Shown one piece after another: positions 3,340 to 61,285 of a DNA stretch of 64,000 nucleotides; position 1 is the first letter of the stretch; every line of letters starts with the position of its first letter. The stretch spans positions 6,520 to 70,519 of the forward strand of contig CAYXQJ010000017.1 in NCBI GenBank assembly GCA_964467455.1, read 5' to 3'. This DNA is from an uncultured Hyphomicrobiales bacterium. Lineage in GTDB: Bacteria > Bacteroidota > Ignavibacteria > Kapaibacteriales > Kapaibacteriaceae. The position numbers and the translations under genes were made by a program. Under the pieces are notes generated by a model. The model worked only from the letters and a program-made list of their open reading frames with translations. It did not search any database and had not been told where the DNA came from.

Positions 3340-4086
3340 CTAAAAGTCGTTCACCGCCATACCAGCCGGCGCAGGTGGGGCACTTGGCGGCTGGGAAGTG
3401 CCATTGGCTGCTGGGGGAGATGCCGGCGGTGGCGGCGGCGACCCAGGCGCCCGGCCGCAGGCGATGTCCGCCGCCTCCTTCCCATACTTCAACTCCACCA
3501 GTTCGTAGCTCTTGGGAACGCTGCGCACGGCCGGATCGAGAACGTGGAACACGCCGTCGTAGGCAAAGTCGTGCTTGTCGATGCTCTTGGCATCCTTGGG
3601 ATCCTTCGCCCGGAACTCGATCTTCCCGATGATCTGCTCGTGCTTCGCGCGATCCCATGTCTCGAGCGTGATCTTCGGTTGGCCGGTTGCCGCATCGACG
3701 ATCATCGAACGGCCGTCCACCGTGATCTCTTTCAGCAGGCCCAGGGCGATACCGAACCGCAGGGCCGATTTCTTCGAACCCTCTTTCGGTGGCCCGCCAC
3801 CGGCAGCACCCAGGTAGATCGAGTGGTTGAACTTCGCCCCGAACGGAGATTGCCCTTCGACGCCGTGAACTACGCCCATGCAAAAGACGATCGAGGGCGA
3901 CTTGTCCTTGCCATCCTTGTTGGTGGCGGCGAGATCGCGCTTCACGTCGTAAATTTCGAAGTGGTACGAGCCTGGCATCTTCACCCAGGAACCGCCCAAG
4001 TCCTCCTGGCTGTACTCGCTGCCGTCCATCGACCAGGCGTCCGCGTTATCGGCCGGGTTTCCACCCCATGCTGCGTCAGTGCTCAT
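3340..4086 (-). CDS. hypothetical protein, possibly a DUF669-like phage ssDNA-binding accessory protein, with a Pro-rich tail
   Basis: ATG at 4086-4084 with AAGGA 8 nt upstream. The segment PGSYHFEIYDVKRD...SIVFCMGVV...FNHSIYLG resembles DUF669-type proteins found next to phage recombinases. The call comes from memory of the family and is not verified. Confidence 0.55.
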   Translation of the reverse strand: MSTDAAWGGNPADNADAWSMDGSEYSQEDLGGSWVKMPGSYHFEIYDVKRDLAATNKDGKDKSPSIVFCMGVVHGVEGQSPFGAKFNHSIYLGAAGGGPPKEGSKKSALRFGIALGLLKEITVDGRSMIVDAATGQPKITLETWDRAKHEQIIGKIEFRAKDPKDAKSIDKHDFAYDGVFHVLDPAVRSVPKSYELVELKYGKEAADIACGRAPGSPPPPPASPPAANGTSQPPSAPPAPAGMAVNDF

Positions 4087-4251
4087 TGTGAGATTCCTTC
4101 TGCTTTAGCCGGCGCAGTACAGGCAGCATTTCCGATGCTGATAGCGTGAGTGCCGGCGGGTATCCAAGAACTTCGATTCCAACTTGTTGAACGATTGCTT
4201 CGCCGTACGTGGCGATGATCGGTTGCAGGTGGCCGGGAATGTCCCGGCGAA

Positions 4252-10424: not shown

Positions 10425-11312
10425 ATGCTGCTTGAGAAATTGATCGAGACCTACATCGCTAGCAGGAACGAAGAGAGGCCGATCGGCCAGGAATTAGCCG
10501 CGAGAACGCAGTTGCATTTGGCAGACTGTGTGCGCGCCTATGGTGCCTGGCTACAGCACGAAGCTGTTTTGACCGACCTTAATCCATTATCAGTAAACGA
10601 CTTTCTTCGCTGGCTTATAGAAGCCGGTCAGTCGCCATACACAGCCCGCAATAGACGATCAGGGCTGCTGGTCCTGTGGCGATTTGCCGAAAGGTCTGGC
10701 CTTACAGACGAACAATCAACCCGCGTGCGTAGGGTGCATTGCCCCACCTTGCAGGTCGATGGATACGCCATCGATCAGGCCCAGGTATTGCTCTCGCGTG
10801 CCTCTGAACTGCGCGGCACGATTCGTTACACGAAGATCCCTCGGCGCATCTACTGGGGCTCACTTCTCCCGACCAAATGGGACTTTGGGTTGCGTGCGGG
10901 AGATGTCTTGGGTGTTCGTGTCGTAGACTTCAACCCAGACGGGCAATTGTGGGTCTACGAGCACAAGACGGGAAAAAGAGGCTGGAGAATACTTCGGCCT
11001 GAAACGCGCGATGCGATCGCCGAGTGTGTCGCGGTTTCACCGAATCGTGAATTCATTTGGCCTGGCTTGCGACCCAGAAGCTTCTATCGTGCGTTCTCAC
11101 GCCTCGCCAAGGCGTCTGGCCTTCCAGGCACCTCGCGCTGGGTGCGCCGTGGGTCATCATCAGAAGTTGAGAAACTTCACCCCGGCGCGGGCTGGAGATT
11201 CCTGAATCACTCCAATCCAGACGTGTTCGAAAAGCATTACAGGGTAAGGAGGATCTGCGACAGCAACCCCCTGCTCCCGCCATCCATCAGGCGGGAATCT
11301 CACGGCGACTAA
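10425..11312 (+). CDS. int: tyrosine recombinase / phage integrase
   Basis: GLRAGDVLGVRVVDF (Arg I), HKTGKRGWRIL, SRWVRRGSSSE (Arg II region) and LNHSNPDVFEKHY (His and the Tyr nucleophile). Confidence 0.85.
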   Translation: MLLEKLIETYIASRNEERPIGQELAARTQLHLADCVRAYGAWLQHEAVLTDLNPLSVNDFLRWLIEAGQSPYTARNRRSGLLVLWRFAERSGLTDEQSTRVRRVHCPTLQVDGYAIDQAQVLLSRASELRGTIRYTKIPRRIYWGSLLPTKWDFGLRAGDVLGVRVVDFNPDGQLWVYEHKTGKRGWRILRPETRDAIAECVAVSPNREFIWPGLRPRSFYRAFSRLAKASGLPGTSRWVRRGSSSEVEKLHPGAGWRFLNHSNPDVFEKHYRVRRICDSNPLLPPSIRRESHGD

Positions 11313-43828: not shown

Positions 43829-44134
43829 ATGGCCAAGAAAAAGAAGGCAACACCAGGCAAGCAAAAGAGCCGGGACTACCAATACTTCGATATGTGGCAC
43901 AAAGAGCCACGCAAACTGCTCGAAGAAATCGATGGCATGAAGTCGATCCTCACCACCTACGCCGAGGAACTAGCCAACGAAGGCGACTACCGCATGGCAA
44001 TGGCACTCGCAGTCACCAGCAGCCTCGCAACAATCGTCTACATCTTGGCACTAAAACAACTTCCACTCGAAAGCGAACTCAGCGACGAAGAAATCAGGGA
44101 CACCATCACAAGGGTTGAGCAACTGGCCAGTTAA
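43829..44134 (+). CDS. hypothetical protein (101 aa)
   Basis: ATG ORF with a Lys-rich N-terminus and a helical remainder. Weak SD. Confidence 0.5.
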   Translation: MAKKKKATPGKQKSRDYQYFDMWHKEPRKLLEEIDGMKSILTTYAEELANEGDYRMAMALAVTSSLATIVYILALKQLPLESELSDEEIRDTITRVEQLAS

Positions 44135-44340
44135 GACCGCCCAGGTTAACAGCGATTTGGGTCAAAAATTCCAGCCGCCGCACAAATACCCATAACGCGG
44201 GCTCGCGGGGCCGCCACCCTACCCCCTCCCCCCGTCCGCCTAACTGCCGACCATTGCCCAGCTTACGGTTGTCCTCGATTTCGTCAGCAACTACCGTGCC
44301 ACTGCCAGCCGTCAGGCATGCGTACCCAGCCCGAGGCGAT

Positions 44341-44380
44341 TTTTTGACTCATCAAAATTGCATTTTTGACTCATCAAAAT
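44341..44380. promoter_or_regulatory. two identical 18-bp palindromic operator-like sites
   Basis: TTTTTGACTCATCAAAAT at 44341-44358 and 44363-44380 (22-bp period). Each contains TTTTGA-ctca-TCAAAA and a TTGACT hexamer. Confidence 0.6.
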
Positions 44381-44426
44381 CTCATCACAACCTATTACCC
44401 CTCATACACTTGCAAGGTTTCAGCAT

Positions 44427-44600
44427 AGTGGTGGGGGCTGGTGTGGAATTGTGGGGGAATAGTGGTGGGGCAGGGGGAGAATAGGGGGCTGGTGCGGTGG
44501 TGGTGTGCGGTGTGGTGTGGCTGGCATCATGCCAGTGGTGGGGCAGTGGTGGGCTGGTGGGCTGGCAGTGAGCTCGGCTGGCTGGCTGGCAGTGGTGGGG
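44427..44600 (+). repeat. G-rich decamer repeats with G-quadruplex potential
   Basis: AGTGGTGGG(G/C) at 44427, 44461, 44534, 44545 and 44591. G4-5 runs at 44433, 44453, 44467, 44473 and 44484. Palindrome CTGGCATcATGCCAG at 44521-44535. Confidence 0.8.
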
Positions 44601-44631
44601 CTGGAATTGAATCGGAATAGGTCACGAATAG
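44457..44631. repeat. GAATAG iteron-like hexamers (4 copies)
   Basis: GAATAG at 44457, 44479, 44615 and 44626. Spacings of 22 and 11 bp within the pairs. Confidence 0.7.
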
Positions 44632-44651
44632 CAGTGATGGGAGATCGGATT

Positions 44652-44909
44652 ATGGGTGGTGGTGGGAAGCGTAGGCGGGTTGTGAAAGCGCGCAGGGGGT
44701 TGGCGGCAATGCCGGCCGAGCGGTTGGCGGAAGTGGCACGGGCTGGCGGGCTGGCTGCGGCGGCAAGCTTGGGTGAGCTCGGCCGGCAGGAGCGGGCGCG
44801 CGCAGGCGGGCTGGCAATTGCTGGTCGGCCGCGGCGGCCGGGCGGCGGGCGGCCGAAGGGGAGTAGGAATAAGGTGAAGCCGGACGAGCTCGATCAGGCT
44901 AGCGAGTAG
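44652..44909 (+). CDS. small basic protein with AT-hook-like GRP motifs (85 aa)
   Basis: ATG at 44652 with GGAG 8 nt upstream (alternative ATG at 44637). GGGGKRRRVVKARR...GRPRRPGGGRPKGSRNK. The upstream part of tracked ORF 44505.. is the G-rich repeat. Confidence 0.5.
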   Translation: MGGGGKRRRVVKARRGLAAMPAERLAEVARAGGLAAAASLGELGRQERARAGGLAIAGRPRRPGGGRPKGSRNKVKPDELDQASE

Positions 44910-44917
44910 CTGGCAGT

Positions 44918-45034
44918 CTATTCGGGGGCTGTTGGTGGGCTATTCCGGGCCCGTTGGCTGGGCTGGCGGGAAAGAATTTTGGGAGTATTTGAGTGCTGTT
45001 TTTAGGCTATTCGGTGGCTATTCTTGGCCTATTC
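44918..45034. repeat. CTATTC iteron-like hexamers (5 copies), inverse orientation to the GAATAG set
   Basis: CTATTC at 44918, 44940, 45007, 45018 and 45029. The last three have an exact 11-bp period (GGCTATTCGGT GGCTATTCTTG GCCTATTCTGA). Confidence 0.75.
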
Positions 45035-45142
45035 TGAAAATATAAGCTTGCAATGGGGACGGACGGACGATAGATTTTCGGTGTGGGCTGGCGAGCACTA
45101 CCGCCGGCCGAGAAGTAGCACTAGAGAATGGGAGATTGGACA

Positions 45143-51733: not shown

Positions 51734-52022
51734 ACCGACTGGTGTAGCGGCAAGCGTCGTGCAGACTGTGTATGTCACGGAAGTCTGGCGAAAGATGCTC
51801 GGCGACAGCCCGAGCGTCGATGATCCGATCATCGAAGATCCAAGGAAGCCGAAGCCAGTTTTGAATGACAACGAGGCCGCCGAGAAGATGGCCGCGTGCG
51901 GCAAGGCCGACTCAGAAATAGGCCACGGCATGGCAGATGATCTGCTCTGCGAAATCCTCATGAGCCTCGGCTACACCAAAACAGTCGAGGAATTCCACAA
52001 GCTCCACAAGTGGTACGCATGA
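51714..52022 (+). CDS. hypothetical protein (102 aa)
   Basis: ATG with GAAAGGA upstream. 20-nt overlap with the previous gene. Confidence 0.5.
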   Translation: MDSKPNKPTGVAASVVQTVYVTEVWRKMLGDSPSVDDPIIEDPRKPKPVLNDNEAAEKMAACGKADSEIGHGMADDLLCEILMSLGYTKTVEEFHKLHKWYA

Positions 52023-53017
52023 TCCAGCAAATCTCCACCGCCCCGGTGCGGCAGCCGATCGCCTACGGCTACATCCGCATGAGCACGCTGCACCAGGAAC
52101 TTTCGCCCGAGATCCAACGCGAGCAAATCGAGGCCGCGTTTAAGTACCGCTTCGAGCCCAAGGGGTACGTGTGGGGCGGCATCTTCGAGGATCCCGCCAC
52201 GTTGGGCAAAACTCACTTCCGCGAGCGGCCGGCGGGGAACGAGCTCTACCTGCGATTGCAAACTGGTGACGCGATCATCATTCAGCGCCCCGATCGACTC
52301 TGCCGCAAGCACTCCGATCAAATCCGCCTGATCGAAGATCTGTGCGAACGCAAGATCATGATCCACTCTACCCAGTGGAACCTAGAAACCAGCGACGGGC
52401 CCGGGCAGTTCATCTTCAACATCATGGGCGCCTACTCCCAGTGGGAGAATCAGGTGCGATCGGAGCGCGTCCGCGAGGCCATGCAATATTTGAAGGCGCG
52501 GGGCCAGGCCACCAGTTCACACCCCGGCTACGGCTGGAAGTGGGAAGGCTACAAGCGGGTGGTGTGCGAGCGCGACTTGAAGATTATGCACGACGTCGTG
52601 GCTTGGGTAGATAGCGGCTGGTCACTCGCGGTAATCGCCCAGCACTTAAACAGCCATGGGTTCTTCAATCGCAAGTGGAAACGCGAGCACGGCCGCAAGG
52701 GTGGCATGTGGCGATTCGAGTGGCGCCCGTGGACCGACAAGCAAATCAAGCGGGTGTACGACGCCGAGCTGCAACGTCGCGCGGATCTTGCCGCGGGCAA
52801 CGAGACGCCGGAATCAAGGGCCGCCACGATGAGTGACGTGGATCGCATGCGGGCCCAAACGGACGGGATCAGCGGTGCCGAAACTATACGGCACGAGTCC
52901 GAAGTATTGCGGGATCAAACTGCTGACGTAAATGGTCGGCGAGCGCCGCTTGACTATGAACAGGAGATGCCGGTTCAGTGGCCTCGGCCAGATGCGGCGG
53001 ATTCAAGTGGCACTTGA
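52019..53017 (+). CDS. serine recombinase (resolvase/invertase catalytic domain plus recombinase domain)
   Basis: AYGYIRMSTLHQ (catalytic Ser), IIQRPDRLCR, SQWENQVRSERVREA, then GYGWKW. ATGA overlap start at 52019. Confidence 0.85.
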   Translation: MIQQISTAPVRQPIAYGYIRMSTLHQELSPEIQREQIEAAFKYRFEPKGYVWGGIFEDPATLGKTHFRERPAGNELYLRLQTGDAIIIQRPDRLCRKHSDQIRLIEDLCERKIMIHSTQWNLETSDGPGQFIFNIMGAYSQWENQVRSERVREAMQYLKARGQATSSHPGYGWKWEGYKRVVCERDLKIMHDVVAWVDSGWSLAVIAQHLNSHGFFNRKWKREHGRKGGMWRFEWRPWTDKQIKRVYDAELQRRADLAAGNETPESRAATMSDVDRMRAQTDGISGAETIRHESEVLRDQTADVNGRRAPLDYEQEMPVQWPRPDAADSSGT

Positions 53018-57772: not shown

Positions 57773-58015
57773 TTACCCCAGGTGGGGATTTGGTGGCGGC
57801 TGGGCAGTTGATTCCGGCGGAACCGTGTCCACTCGCACGGCAGTCGGCTCCCCCTTTACTCGCCGCACCCGGACGGCACGGTTGGCCTCGATCGCGAGCC
57901 GCACCTGGCTCGAACCTACCTGCCCGACATGAATGCGAACGGTGTGGGCGTCAGGAGTCCCCTCACCAACCGTGAATTCGACGATCTCGCCATAGCGGCG
58001 TTCGATGACGTACAA
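57773..58015 (-). CDS. CsrA-like RNA-binding protein, second copy (80 aa)
   Basis: TTG at 58015-58013 with GGAGG 7 nt upstream gives MYVIERRYGEIVEF...HTVRIHVGQVGSSQVRLAIEANRAVRVRRV, collinear with CsrA. The tracked ORF starts 32 codons earlier. Confidence 0.6.
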   Translation of the reverse strand: MYVIERRYGEIVEFTVGEGTPDAHTVRIHVGQVGSSQVRLAIEANRAVRVRRVKGEPTAVRVDTVPPESTAQPPPNPHLG

Positions 58016-58498
58016 CCCAGGGCCTCCAAAATGCCCAGCATCGCGAGGGCATCGTGCCCGGGTGGCTTCCGTGAGGAGTCGGCCGGCTTCTATTACACTG
58101 CCGGCGACCATGAAATAAGGACTTAAGTTCTGTTTTACAAGGCATTACACCCGACTGTAATGATGCAAGTGGTTTGATGGTATCAACTTGCGTCAAAAAA
58201 TGGCCCCTCATTACACCTTACAGTTCCAGAGAGGCATATATATATACCCCCCTCCCCATACTGACATTTGTTCACCTACTGTACTGATGTACTAATGGGG
58301 GAACTTGTCTATATATGTGTGTTCTCTGTAATAGTGTAATACCTACTACTACTTACTTACTTACTACTTACTACTTACTACTAACTACTACTACTACTAC
58401 TACTTATATCTACTGCCATCGCCACAAGTCGGATTACAAAGATGCGCAATGGTGGTGTAATGGGGTGTAATCGGAAGACAGGAGGCATGGGCAGTCAG
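58016..58498. promoter_or_regulatory. AT-rich repeat-rich intergenic region (candidate origin and/or promoter region)
   Basis: CATTACACC at 58143 and 58209, facing GGTGTAAT(G/C) at 58454 and 58464 and GTGTAAT at 58334. ATATATATATA at about 58236. Microsatellite at 58343-58406. Confidence 0.55.
58343..58406. repeat. (TAC)n/(TACT)n microsatellite
   Basis: ctactactacttacttacttactacttactacttactactaactactactactactactta. Confidence 0.9.
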
Positions 58499-61285
58499 CT
58501 AGTAGGAGTCGATTTCTGTGTGAACGATGGGGGATTTGGTCTCCCCAATCAACGCATCGATCGACGCCTGCGGGATCGTGATGCCCCTGGCTGCGTGCGA
58601 GAGTGCCGTCACGGTTCGCTTCGCCCCTTTGATACGCAGGAGGATTTGGGAGATGTCCTGCTCGGCGTATGGGGTGCGCGACAGGAGCTCGCGGCGAATG
58701 CTGCCGTGAGAGAAGAACATTGCCGGGGGATCGAGGTGATCCATGATCCGAATGCCGTTCGAACGAAGTATCTGATCCCTGGCGCCAACATCGCCCGTGT
58801 TGGTTGGCATGGCCGCCCCGCTAATGACGTCGCTGATTGTCACCTTCTTCCCACCCGGCATGATGATTGTGGTTTCGTAGATCGTACGCATTAGCCGCTC
58901 CTCGTCGCTCTCCTCTTGAGCGGACAGATCGCGCTCCCCCAGCCACAGCCGCAGGTTGCCGGTCGTCTCCTCGAGCGTCATGCCATACGCACAGCCGATC
59001 AGCGAGGCGGGTGCCGAGAAGGATTCCACGATCCGGCGATCTGTGGCCAAAGGTACCTGGCGGATCTTGTCGGCCATTTCGATCGCTTTGGGGGCGTTCC
59101 GGATGGCCACGGCGAGTAGCTTCTGCCCCAAAGCTGTCAGTTCAGCCTTGGGTGGCAGGGTAAGCTTCGAAGGGCTGCCTGGGGGCAGGTTCTCGAGATC
59201 GAGCATGATGAACCGGTTCCGGTCGGCAGCGGCATGCAGGCCGAGTTCGATGGCCCCCACCCAGGCGATATGCTGCAGGCCGAAGCTGATGCCCCGCTGG
59301 TTCGACGTCCCGCGGAGCGACTTGCCGCCGCGGCCGGCCGTGCGGAGCATGTTGAGAATGCCTACCCGGTGCTTGTCGTCTTCGAACTCGTCCGTCAGGA
59401 TCACCTTGGCCGTGTTCCGGATGGCGTGGCGAATGCCGGCTTCGGTGGACTTCGAGTTGAAGCAGGCCAGTTTGCCGAACATCACCTGCAGGCAGTCCTC
59501 GAGCAGCATGCTCTTGCCCGATCCGGACGTTCCGGTGACGCCGACTTGCGGCCGCCAGCCCCACAGTGTTTGAACCCAGGTGGCCATTACGAGGCCGGCG
59601 ATGAGGCTCGGGTTGCTCGGATGGCGCCAGTTGTCCCAGCGGCCGAACAACTGGGTGGCTTCTTCCGCGACGGTCTCGCACCACCCCGGGGACGCCGCGA
59701 GCTGCAGTAGGCTCGCCAGGTGGGCATGGTCGTACCATGGCTCGGCAGCAAAATCGACACGGCGCCCGTGCACAGCCGGCGCTGAAAACCGCTCGAGCGT
59801 CTTGCCGTCCCACACGTCGCACGACTTATGGCCGACGAGCACGGTGTCCTCTTTGACGTGCCACACCCCAGCCCCGATGGCCGGCTCTCGATCGAGGAAC
59901 TCCCGGCCGCAGAGATCGGCCAGGGCCGTGCGAACGTCGTCGATGTGGAACTTCCCGTTGCCAGCCTCCTCGCCGCGCTTAAGGATGAATCGATCGACGA
60001 GCTCGTTCCCCATGTCGCGCACGGCGTGCACGTACGTGTAGTGCTGCGGATCCTTGATGCGCGACTTCTTGCACAGGGCCTCGGAATAGATCTCGAGATC
60101 GCCGGTGTCTTCGAACTGCCCGGTGGCGATCACCTTGAGGCACTGCAGGATGGCCTCGTGCTTGCTGAGCTTCTGGCTTTCGTCGTCGATGGCGATGGCC
60201 TCGGTGGCGTCCGCCAGCGCGAGCAAGTCCTTAAAAGTGCGCCGTTCCCCCTCTATTTCCTCCCCGAAATAATCCCGGATATCCTTGCCGTGCTTCGGCT
60301 CGATGGGGTACGGCAGTTGGATGTTCTTCACCGCCGCAGCCACGTTGATCACGGCCTGCACCCACACCTTCGCGGCTGCCTGGCCCGGCTCGTCGGCGTC
60401 CATGCAGATGTAGACTTGCTTGCCGGCGAAGTGCTGGATCCATTCCGGCCGCGGGTGGTAGCTACAACTGCCTGTGGTGATGACGACATGATCGGTGTCG
60501 AGCCATTCGGGGATCATCGTCTGCATGGTGAGCATGTCTGGCAGACCCTCGCAGATCCAGACGACTCGAGCATTCTGCAGGTGCTTCAAGGCGTGGACGT
60601 TCATCATCCCGGGGGGCAGGCCGGGTGTGACCAGGGTGATCGTCTTGAGCGGTTCGCTGTCCTTCCCCTTGCCCTGGTATTTCAGCACGCTCTCGCCCGT
60701 GCTGTTTACTCCTTGGTAGCTATGCACGTCGCCGTCCAGTAGCTTTTCGCCGAACGACGGGAAGACGATGAGGGCCTGTTGTCGATCGTGCGGGGCATTG
60801 GCCGGGTAGTGGGCCCCAGTACCACCGCACTTGAGGATCGCGGCGGCTTTGATCGGCGGCTTCTTGGCCGCGTAGCCGACGAGCATGCCAGGCGAGGCCG
60901 GGAATAGCGTAACCTTGTCGGTGGCCACACTGTCGGCCGACTTCGGCAGTTCGAACTTGAGATCGGCTGCGAATTTCCGGCGCGCGTCACGCCAGGTCGG
61001 GCCGTAGCCGCCGACGTTCTTTGCCGCGAACTCGAAGATCGACTGGCTAACGGCATCGCCGCCGAAGTCTTTGTAGCGGCCGCGCAGCCCGTCACCGCCG
61101 ACGTTGATCGCCGCCGAGGGGTTGCTGTCCTCGCGGCCGTAGGCGTGGCACTTTAGCCAGCCGGAAATGTTCGGCGTGCCGTTGCGATCGAATCGCACGC
61201 CGGCCGAGGCGTAGAAGTCTTCGATATTGGTAAGGGCAAGAAGCTCCCGATGGGCCTCATGCCATTGTGTCTTTACGTCAGCCAT
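58499..61285 (-). CDS. bifunctional DNA primase / SF3 helicase (TOPRIM plus P4/D5-type ATPase)
   Basis: KCHAYGREDSNPSAAIN (primase zinc-finger-like), TOPRIM VWICEGLPDMLT and YICMDADEPGQAAA, Walker A GTSGSGKS, Walker B VILTDEFED. Confidence 0.85.
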   Translation of the reverse strand: MADVKTQWHEAHRELLALTNIEDFYASAGVRFDRNGTPNISGWLKCHAYGREDSNPSAAINVGGDGLRGRYKDFGGDAVSQSIFEFAAKNVGGYGPTWRDARRKFAADLKFELPKSADSVATDKVTLFPASPGMLVGYAAKKPPIKAAAILKCGGTGAHYPANAPHDRQQALIVFPSFGEKLLDGDVHSYQGVNSTGESVLKYQGKGKDSEPLKTITLVTPGLPPGMMNVHALKHLQNARVVWICEGLPDMLTMQTMIPEWLDTDHVVITTGSCSYHPRPEWIQHFAGKQVYICMDADEPGQAAAKVWVQAVINVAAAVKNIQLPYPIEPKHGKDIRDYFGEEIEGERRTFKDLLALADATEAIAIDDESQKLSKHEAILQCLKVIATGQFEDTGDLEIYSEALCKKSRIKDPQHYTYVHAVRDMGNELVDRFILKRGEEAGNGKFHIDDVRTALADLCGREFLDREPAIGAGVWHVKEDTVLVGHKSCDVWDGKTLERFSAPAVHGRRVDFAAEPWYDHAHLASLLQLAASPGWCETVAEEATQLFGRWDNWRHPSNPSLIAGLVMATWVQTLWGWRPQVGVTGTSGSGKSMLLEDCLQVMFGKLACFNSKSTEAGIRHAIRNTAKVILTDEFEDDKHRVGILNMLRTAGRGGKSLRGTSNQRGISFGLQHIAWVGAIELGLHAAADRNRFIMLDLENLPPGSPSKLTLPPKAELTALGQKLLAVAIRNAPKAIEMADKIRQVPLATDRRIVESFSAPASLIGCAYGMTLEETTGNLRLWLGERDLSAQEESDEERLMRTIYETTIIMPGGKKVTISDVISGAAMPTNTGDVGARDQILRSNGIRIMDHLDPPAMFFSHGSIRRELLSRTPYAEQDISQILLRIKGAKRTVTALSHAARGITIPQASIDALIGETKSPIVHTEIDSY

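Follow-up and report, generated by a model that had tools for sequence, protein, structure and literature searches.

Does the sole strongly AT-rich stretch of a GC-rich phage genome mark the place where its replication begins? We address this question for an intergenic gap of 483 bp (positions 58016-58498) in a 64,000-nucleotide stretch of DNA, called the window below, which covers positions 6520-70519 of the 71,258-bp contig C17. The gap is exactly the space between two minus-strand genes, one encoding a 928-residue primase-helicase and the other an 80-residue CsrA-like protein. We propose that the gap is probably the vegetative replication origin of the phage and that it is of the iteron type, as in the Staphylococcus aureus pathogenicity islands (SaPIs) and other phage-inducible chromosomal islands (PICIs) and in satellite phage P4. 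Judged from sequence, it is most likely a known kind of element, a SaPI/P4-type iteron origin, in a new phage and host setting. To our knowledge, nothing is known about the replication biology of these uncultured phages and prophages, which are found mostly in Planctomycetota genomes, and the gap and the adjoining gene provide a concrete candidate pair of origin and initiator for them.

Anatomy of the gap

A preliminary description of the window had pointed to this gap as its sole strongly AT-rich stretch, and the base composition agrees. The 400-bp bin 58001-58400 has a GC content of 0.448, compared with 0.532 in the next-lowest bin and ~61% in the window overall. On the side of the primase-helicase, the gap ends at the TAG stop of this minus-strand gene (58499-58501). 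The repeats listed in the preliminary description are all present: CATTACACC at 58143 and 58209, GGTGTAATG at 58454, GGTGTAATC at 58464, and GTGTAAT at 58334. The (AT) run near 58236 (58236-58246) and the TAC/TACT microsatellite (58343-58404; period 3, 18.7 copies, and 87% matches in Tandem Repeats Finder) are found as well. There are additional sites beyond that list, namely ATTACAC at 58092, TGTAAT at 58156 and 58327, and ATTACA at 58433. The gap thus contains nine sites with a TGTAAT core within 380 bp, five on the plus strand and four on the minus strand, and these sites surround both the tract at 58337-58414 and a spacer at 58217-58326 (Table 1). Two of the arrangements are tandem pairs, with spacings of 10 bp and 8 bp.

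The clustering of these repeats in the gap exceeds chance. GTGTAAT occurs seven times in the 64 kb, with 2.35 occurrences expected window-wide and none of 100 shuffles reaching seven, and six of the seven lie inside 58092-58471, three per strand. When the gap itself was shuffled with its dinucleotides preserved, six copies of one 7-mer were reached in none of 200 shuffles. The full 9-mer, searched window-wide with one mismatch allowed, is not enriched (7 found, 7.2 expected); the four good copies of it are all within the gap.

Table 1. Coordinates of the features in the gap and of its two flanking genes, listed from the primase-helicase side.
Feature	Coordinates	Strand	Remarks
Primase-helicase gene, candidate initiator, 928 aa	58499-61285	-	Toprim, P-loop ATPase and C-terminal domain
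Origin-like intergenic region	58016-58498		Lowest GC in the window; contains nine of the 15 TGTAAT/ATTACA words found window-wide
Tandem iterons GGTGTAATG and GGTGTAATC	58454-58472	+	10 bp start to start (58454, 58464); closest iterons to the primase-helicase stop, 26 bp away
Weak iteron-like site TTGTAATCC	58432-58440	-	Faces the 58327-58340 pair across the G-free tract; ATTACA at 58433
Candidate DNA-unwinding element	58337-58414		78 bp without G on the plus strand; includes (TAC)n/(TACT)n at 58343-58404
Adjacent iteron-like sites CTGTAATAG and AGTGTAATA	58327-58340	+	8 bp apart; on the border of the G-free tract; GTGTAAT at 58334
Alternating purine-pyrimidine run TATATATGTGTG	58310-58321		
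Imperfect palindrome	58229-58254		Around the (AT) run 58236-58246
Iteron GGTGTAATG	58209-58217	-	Plus-strand reading CATTACACC
Iteron GGTGTAATG (58143-58151, -), then inverted partial copy CTGTAATGA (58155-58163, +)	58143-58163		
Iteron-like site AGTGTAATA	58091-58099	-	In the leader of the CsrA-like gene; ATTACAC at 58092
CsrA-like gene, 80 aa	57773-58015	-	TTG start at 58015, GGAGG 7 nt upstream; closes the gap

The tract at 58337-58414 is the least stable duplex in the window at scales of 40, 60, 100, and 200 bp, with about -1.05 to -1.19 kcal/mol per step compared with an average of -1.55. No other G-free tract of the window is as long: it has 78 bp and the runner-up 43 bp. The two single strands of the tract fold at 0 and -1.7 kcal/mol and are essentially unstructured. 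Because one strand contains no G and the other no C, the strands, once opened, should not be able to fold back.

Conservation of the layout beside the primase-helicase gene

The primase-helicase belongs to a rare family. Among 5.8 billion proteins, we found 14 full-length homologues with 29-42% identity, mainly in Pirellulales, Pirellulaceae, Planctomycetaceae, and Planctomycetota metagenome-assembled genomes (MAGs) or in viral contigs, and one of them lies inside a 7.4-Mb Pirellulales contig. We compared 15 independent loci with sequence downstream of the primase-helicase gene. The layout of the window is found directly after the stop of this gene in 12 of the 15 loci; in L007, one extra gene of the same operon intervenes. 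The conserved order starts with two or three iterons, followed by an AT-rich simple tract of 25-78 bp without G or without C. Two or three inverted iterons come next, and beyond a spacer there are further iterons. Each of the 11 loci that were analysed first has the least stable 60-mer of its fetched sequence (8-64 kb) in the gap. In nine of these 11, the gap contains 4-10 copies of a single 7-mer, with both orientations represented, a number matched by 0-2 of 200 shuffles. Three further loci from Planctomycetota-type MAGs (L028, L031, and L032) have the same layout. In addition, the longest G-free or C-free tract of the locus sits in the gap in 13 of the 15 loci.

Conservation of the repeats in relatives had been named in advance as a check on the origin reading. 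It is the layout that is kept, while the repeated word differs by lineage. The window uses GGTGTAATG, and the words of the relatives are GTGTGATTGAT in L005, GTGGTAACAGT in L017, TGAGACAAT in L028, ATTGGTCCA in L016, TAAGACAAG in L004, GGTGGTACGG in L011, GGTTCACCTGGTCCA in L003, GCGCAACA in L031, and GCATTAGTG in L032. Except for low-complexity words, no 6-mer or 7-mer is common to the gaps across lineages above the level of shuffles. The conservation is therefore architectural with a lineage-specific word, as expected if each initiator reads its own word. A shared motif for a promoter, a host factor, or the primase was also considered, and one word, GCATGCAGATTG, is present in L003 and L004 and absent elsewhere. 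The gene upstream of the gap is constantly the primase-helicase, whereas the downstream genes of eight loci fall into six or more unrelated families, and the layout is therefore linked to the primase-helicase and not to the downstream gene. These comparative observations, which we regard as the decisive evidence, support the claim of the preliminary description that an iteron origin lies beside an initiator helicase.

Two relatives, L009 (gap at 3777-4157) and L010 (10758-11063), are close enough for a direct comparison, as their primase-helicases are 80% identical and their gaps can be aligned. The word TGATGA/TCATCA occurs seven times in L009 and not at all in L010, while TGAGT/ACTCA occurs 11 times in L010 and once in L009. 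The switch covers both orientations and all four repeat groups, and the AT-rich core between the arms is ~90% identical. In these two loci, the tract itself is made of overlapping iteron cores, which appear as the "microsatellites" (ATC)n and (CTCA)n. A concerted change on opposed arms indicates that one factor reads all copies; by itself, it does not identify this factor as the primase-helicase. When the two proteins (P0010 and P0011) were compared for a specificity determinant, the substitutions were evenly spread and not concentrated in the C-terminal hairpin. L009 and L010 are a natural specificity-swap pair, and together with the fourteen loci with clear, lineage-differing words, this pair offers material for asking how a primase-helicase that loads itself recognises its origin. 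The same set may be used for orthogonal replicons in Planctomycetota genetics.

A near-identical copy of the gap was searched for as well. An exact 26-mer from it is absent from the metagenome, viral, and genome collections, and a search of GenBank phage DNA was empty. Where relatives were sampled twice (L005/L006 and L007/L008), the gaps are identical, with no sign of slippage. We note some additional features of individual loci. In the Pirellulaceae MAG relative L029 (2834-2939), no repeat-bearing gap follows the gene. In the viral-contig relative L018 (4001-7167), there is an in-frame stop inside the primase-helicase match, and the gene may be split or broken. Alternating purine-pyrimidine tracts, which are prone to form Z-DNA, are located between iteron groups in L017 (7052-7107, the longest with 56 bp), L005 (12868-12905), and L016 (4502-4526), and the window has such tracts at 58234-58247 and 58309-58321. 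They were dropped as a universal feature, being absent in five relatives.

The candidate initiator and its counterparts in known systems

The 928-residue protein contains a DnaG-type Toprim primase domain at residues 243-339 (Pfam Toprim_2, E=4.3e-6, over the cut-off), a P-loop ATPase with the Walker A motif GTSGSGKS at ~585-592 and the Walker B motif DEFE at 632-635, and a C-terminal alpha/beta domain at ~791-915. In an alignment of the 14 homologues, the Walker A and B residues are invariant and arginines are conserved. PHROG families annotated as DNA primase match residues 549-893 and 223-342. A distant homologue, P0015, aligns to the helicase part with E=7e-34 and in turn hits TIGR01613 ("phage/plasmid primase, P4 family") with 1.3e-48; other more distant homologues that align to the ATPase part (E=1e-34 to 1e-10) carry PF19263, PF03288, PF08706, or TIGR01613. 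The protein thus appears to be an SF3/D5-like (superfamily 3) helicase by transitive homology only.

AlphaFold models of the C-terminus are confident, with a predicted local distance difference test (pLDDT) of 82.6 for the last 230 residues, and a pLDDT of 84.6 and a predicted template modelling score (pTM) of 0.77 for the last 138 residues. The modelled C-terminus consists of two small alpha/beta units, and the final one is a three-helix bundle followed by a beta-hairpin. Weak hits of this domain in a Foldseek search of the PDB include the winged-helix proteins HSF and 3r0a, and a Foldseek search of BFVD gives significant matches only to the ends of two large uncharacterised phage proteins. 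From these models, a winged-helix origin-binding domain at the C-terminus is plausible. We note that the very end of the protein (58499-58540) is an acidic tail with an aromatic last residue, ...TEIDSY, and that relatives end in ...DDGF, ...EEDF, ...KEDY, or ...ADENF. C-terminal docking tails are found in T7 gp4, T7 gp2.5, and bacterial SSB. By analogy with them, the acidic tail of the primase-helicase may recruit a polymerase or SSB partner.

These features suggest how the origin might work. The primase-helicase would bind the TGTAAT-core iterons, probably via its C-terminal domain, and hexamers would form on either side of the G-free (TAC)n tract, which they would then open. The opened tract would stay unfolded owing to its three-letter composition and would give a clean single-stranded landing pad, on which the protein could load itself as the replicative helicase while its Toprim domain makes the first primers. 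Of all features of the element, we consider only the conserved three-letter, microsatellite-like unwinding tract mildly unusual. It is possible, though we lean against the idea, that the three-letter tract of 25-78 bp is not filler but a purpose-built origin part of this phage group, whose composition would keep both opened strands unfolded and which would serve as a pad for loading and priming, and that its length, which slippage could alter in the (TAC)n version of the window, could tune firing. The recurrence of such a tract points to a small and possibly general design rule for origins in GC-rich replicons.

SaPI origins lie directly 3' of rep, span ~300 bp, and contain 6-12 iterons opposed about an AT-rich region; a self-loading SF3 helicase, which in PriRep5 is joined to a primase, binds them with its C-terminal winged-helix domain (PMC9371898; bioRxiv 10.64898/2026.10.17.759575). 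The locus studied here resembles this arrangement in several respects. The origin-like region is located immediately 3' of the primase-helicase gene and is ~300-500 bp long, an AT-rich segment is flanked on both sides by several short iterons, some of them inverted relative to the others, each lineage has its own iteron word, and, as in PriRep5, primase, P-loop helicase, and C-terminal domain are in one chain. The setting is different, since the phage has a 71-kb genome of ~61% GC and is apparently one of Planctomycetota, whereas a SaPI is a satellite of 15 kb from a coccus of low GC. In addition, the iteron core is longer (6-9 bp compared with 5-6 bp), and the AT-rich element resembles a microsatellite and is written in three letters, being G-free or C-free. 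In the window, the iterons to the left and right of this tract mostly point the same way, and the C-terminal domain has no detectable sequence match or significant fold match to that of SaPI Rep.

The origin signal of P4 consists of octamer iterons, and P4 requires a second cis site, crr, several kb from ori. Short repeated words likewise form the putative origin signal here, but there is no second iteron cluster, as the 71-kb contig has just one GTGTAAT/ATTACAC word that is not in the gap. The P4 alpha protein has the order DnaG-type primase, SF3 helicase, and winged helix (PMC2777425). The window protein has the domain order of P4 alpha and PriRep5, with a Toprim primase followed by a putative SF3-type ATPase and then a C-terminal domain, which is DNA-binding in P4 (PMC2777425). 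The match of P0015, a distant homologue of the helicase part, to TIGR01613 is a further likeness, whereas the window protein itself remains below the threshold of this family, with no hit at E≤0.01, and the P4 origin-binding domain in the PDB is not matched significantly by its C-terminal domain.

The iterons of phage lambda are located inside the O gene, and plasmid iterons are commonly accompanied by DnaA boxes. Unlike in lambda, all iteron sites of the window are outside the 58499-61285 reading frame. DnaA boxes (TTATCCACA-like, with at most one mismatch) are not found in 58016-58498, and the window has four of them compared with 5.5 expected. In theta plasmids and phage lambda, iterons lie beside an AT-rich unwinding element and are read by an initiator that the replicon encodes (PMC4980987, PMC5043065). 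Similarly, the iterons described here adjoin an AT-rich tract, and the phage has its own candidate initiator. Unlike the primase-helicase of the window, theta-plasmid Rep and lambda O are neither helicase nor primase, and they recruit DnaB from the host.

Counter-evidence, alternative readings and the phage genome

Several observations weigh against an origin in the gap that is read by the primase-helicase. The preliminary description had called the protein an SF3 helicase; SF3-type homologues do align to its ATPase part, but the protein itself (P0001) reaches no SF3 family threshold in Pfam or NCBIfam. In Foldseek searches of the PDB, the C-terminal models give no significant match, the best being a winged-helix-like regulator at E=0.15, and neither the P4 alpha origin-binding domain nor the SaPI Rep structures are hit. 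A sequence search of the PDB gives no match outside the Toprim domain. The iteron arrangement of the window is also less symmetrical than in most relatives. The preliminary description had placed facing iterons around an easily melted segment, and copies are indeed present on both strands, but the two pairs that directly flank the tract (58327-58340 and 58454-58472) are co-directional. A weak site, at 58433, is the only one to face inward, and the set that is clearly opposed (58092-58216) is 120-240 bp away from the tract. Three of the 15 loci are without a clear layout, being unclear in L015 and L030 and without a gap in L029.

The GC skew also fits poorly. The cumulative skew of the contig has its maximum near 61-62 kb of the window and its minimum near 9.5 kb, and by bacterial convention the polarity change near 61-62 kb has the sign of a terminus, so that the gap is located at a terminus-like switch. 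The sharpest flip of the skew is origin-signed (-0.27 to +0.51) and is found at ~44.4 kb, and we regard this region as the main alternative location of the origin. We weigh the skew lightly because phage skews are often set by other forces. The flip at ~44.4 kb lies inside the second repeat-dense non-coding region of the window (44100-45100), in which TTTTTGACTCATCAAAAT is duplicated and a G-rich block of GGTGG occurs along with arrays of CTATTC/GAATAG.

Instead of an origin, or together with one, the gap may be a transcription control region at a module boundary, with operator or activator repeats and a promoter for the CsrA-like/lysis-like operon. In all relatives, the gap lies between the replication genes and the next operon. 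The concerted change of words between L009 and L010 is also expected for pairs of operator and repressor, and the operator sites of a lineage-specific repressor would show the same change, which is another point against our reading. In addition, the core between the arms of these two loci is ~90% identical compared with 73% for the flanking gene, which suggests a sequence-specific signal, such as a promoter. However, the lineages share the upstream gene but have unrelated genes downstream, and no regulator gene is regularly found next to the gap. Low-complexity words aside, the lineages have no word in common, so that no shared promoter motif is visible. An operator region would also not usually have 9-10 or more sites that extend over 300-500 bp and surround the genome's least stable DNA. 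A consensus scan finds no sigma-70-type promoter or terminator in the gap, although host promoters may differ. The preliminary description had held that the gap must carry the promoter of the downstream operon. This claim is not established, as the scan, which does not cover the promoters of the presumed Planctomycetota hosts, gives no sigma-70-like promoter, and a promoter in the gap is not required because the flanking genes are co-directional. We therefore consider transcription control unlikely as the explanation of the gap, and it can coexist with an origin. A CsrA-titrating RNA in the gap was another idea that we gave up, since GGA motifs are not abundant there, and an Rfam search of the gap gives no match at E≤1.

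Short repeat arrays in two orientations are also typical of parS-type centromeres and of the arm-type sites of attP, and the phage has a serine recombinase (52010-53017) and an integrase-like gene (10425-11312). The gap could accordingly be imagined as a centromere-like partition site or another maintenance site of a plasmid-like prophage state, or as a packaging or integration site. This seems very improbable to us, since no ParA/ParB-type gene is seen next to the gap, be it in the window or in relatives, and the element tracks the primase-helicase gene in relatives wherever those other genes lie. The integrase-like gene is 47 kb away and the large terminase gene ~21 kb away, and for this distance an attP or packaging site was rejected. 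The gap may finally be a functionless, fast-evolving spacer of low complexity, with repeats that arose by slippage or local duplication and are read by no protein. A true microsatellite is present in it, and the lineages have no sequence word in common. On the other hand, the ordered layout is found again in 12 of the 15 independent relatives, whose proteins are 29-42% identical, slippage does not create repeats in both orientations, and all copies changed together between L009 and L010 while the core stayed constant. We give such a spacer only a slight chance, and an origin associated with the primase-helicase is the reading we favour.

Contig C17 as a whole is a phage genome. It contains genes for a large terminase, structural proteins, a methyltransferase, a RecT-like protein, a RecD2-like helicase, an ERCC4 nuclease, a PolB-exonuclease-like protein, a serine recombinase, and an integrase-like protein. 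An exact direct repeat of 54 bp is found at 129-182 and at 71205-71258, the last 54 bases of the contig. In relatives, the RecD2-like and ERCC4 genes precede the primase-helicase gene, while here they are at the opposite end of the contig (window 85-2832). This position and the direct repeat indicate that the genome is circular or circularly permuted. As the homologues are mostly in Planctomycetota MAGs, the hosts are likely Planctomycetota. The GC content of C17 is 60.7%, compared with ~55-56% in the rest of its bin. The bin (G000) has 4.5 Mb and 6.35% contamination, while genomes of the same genus have 1.9-2.8 Mb. These figures, together with the 5-point GC excess of C17 over the large contigs, make the assignment of the phage contig to this bin doubtful.

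The CsrA-like gene at the other end of the gap matches Pfam CsrA over residues 1-52 with E=9.1e-5, which is under the curated cut-off. CsrA-family genes recur in the replication regions of L003, L005, L007, L010, and L011. Additionally, a 12-bp tandem repeat, CCGCCGCCGACT, is found in 9.9 copies at 2536-2657, inside the RecD2-like helicase gene.

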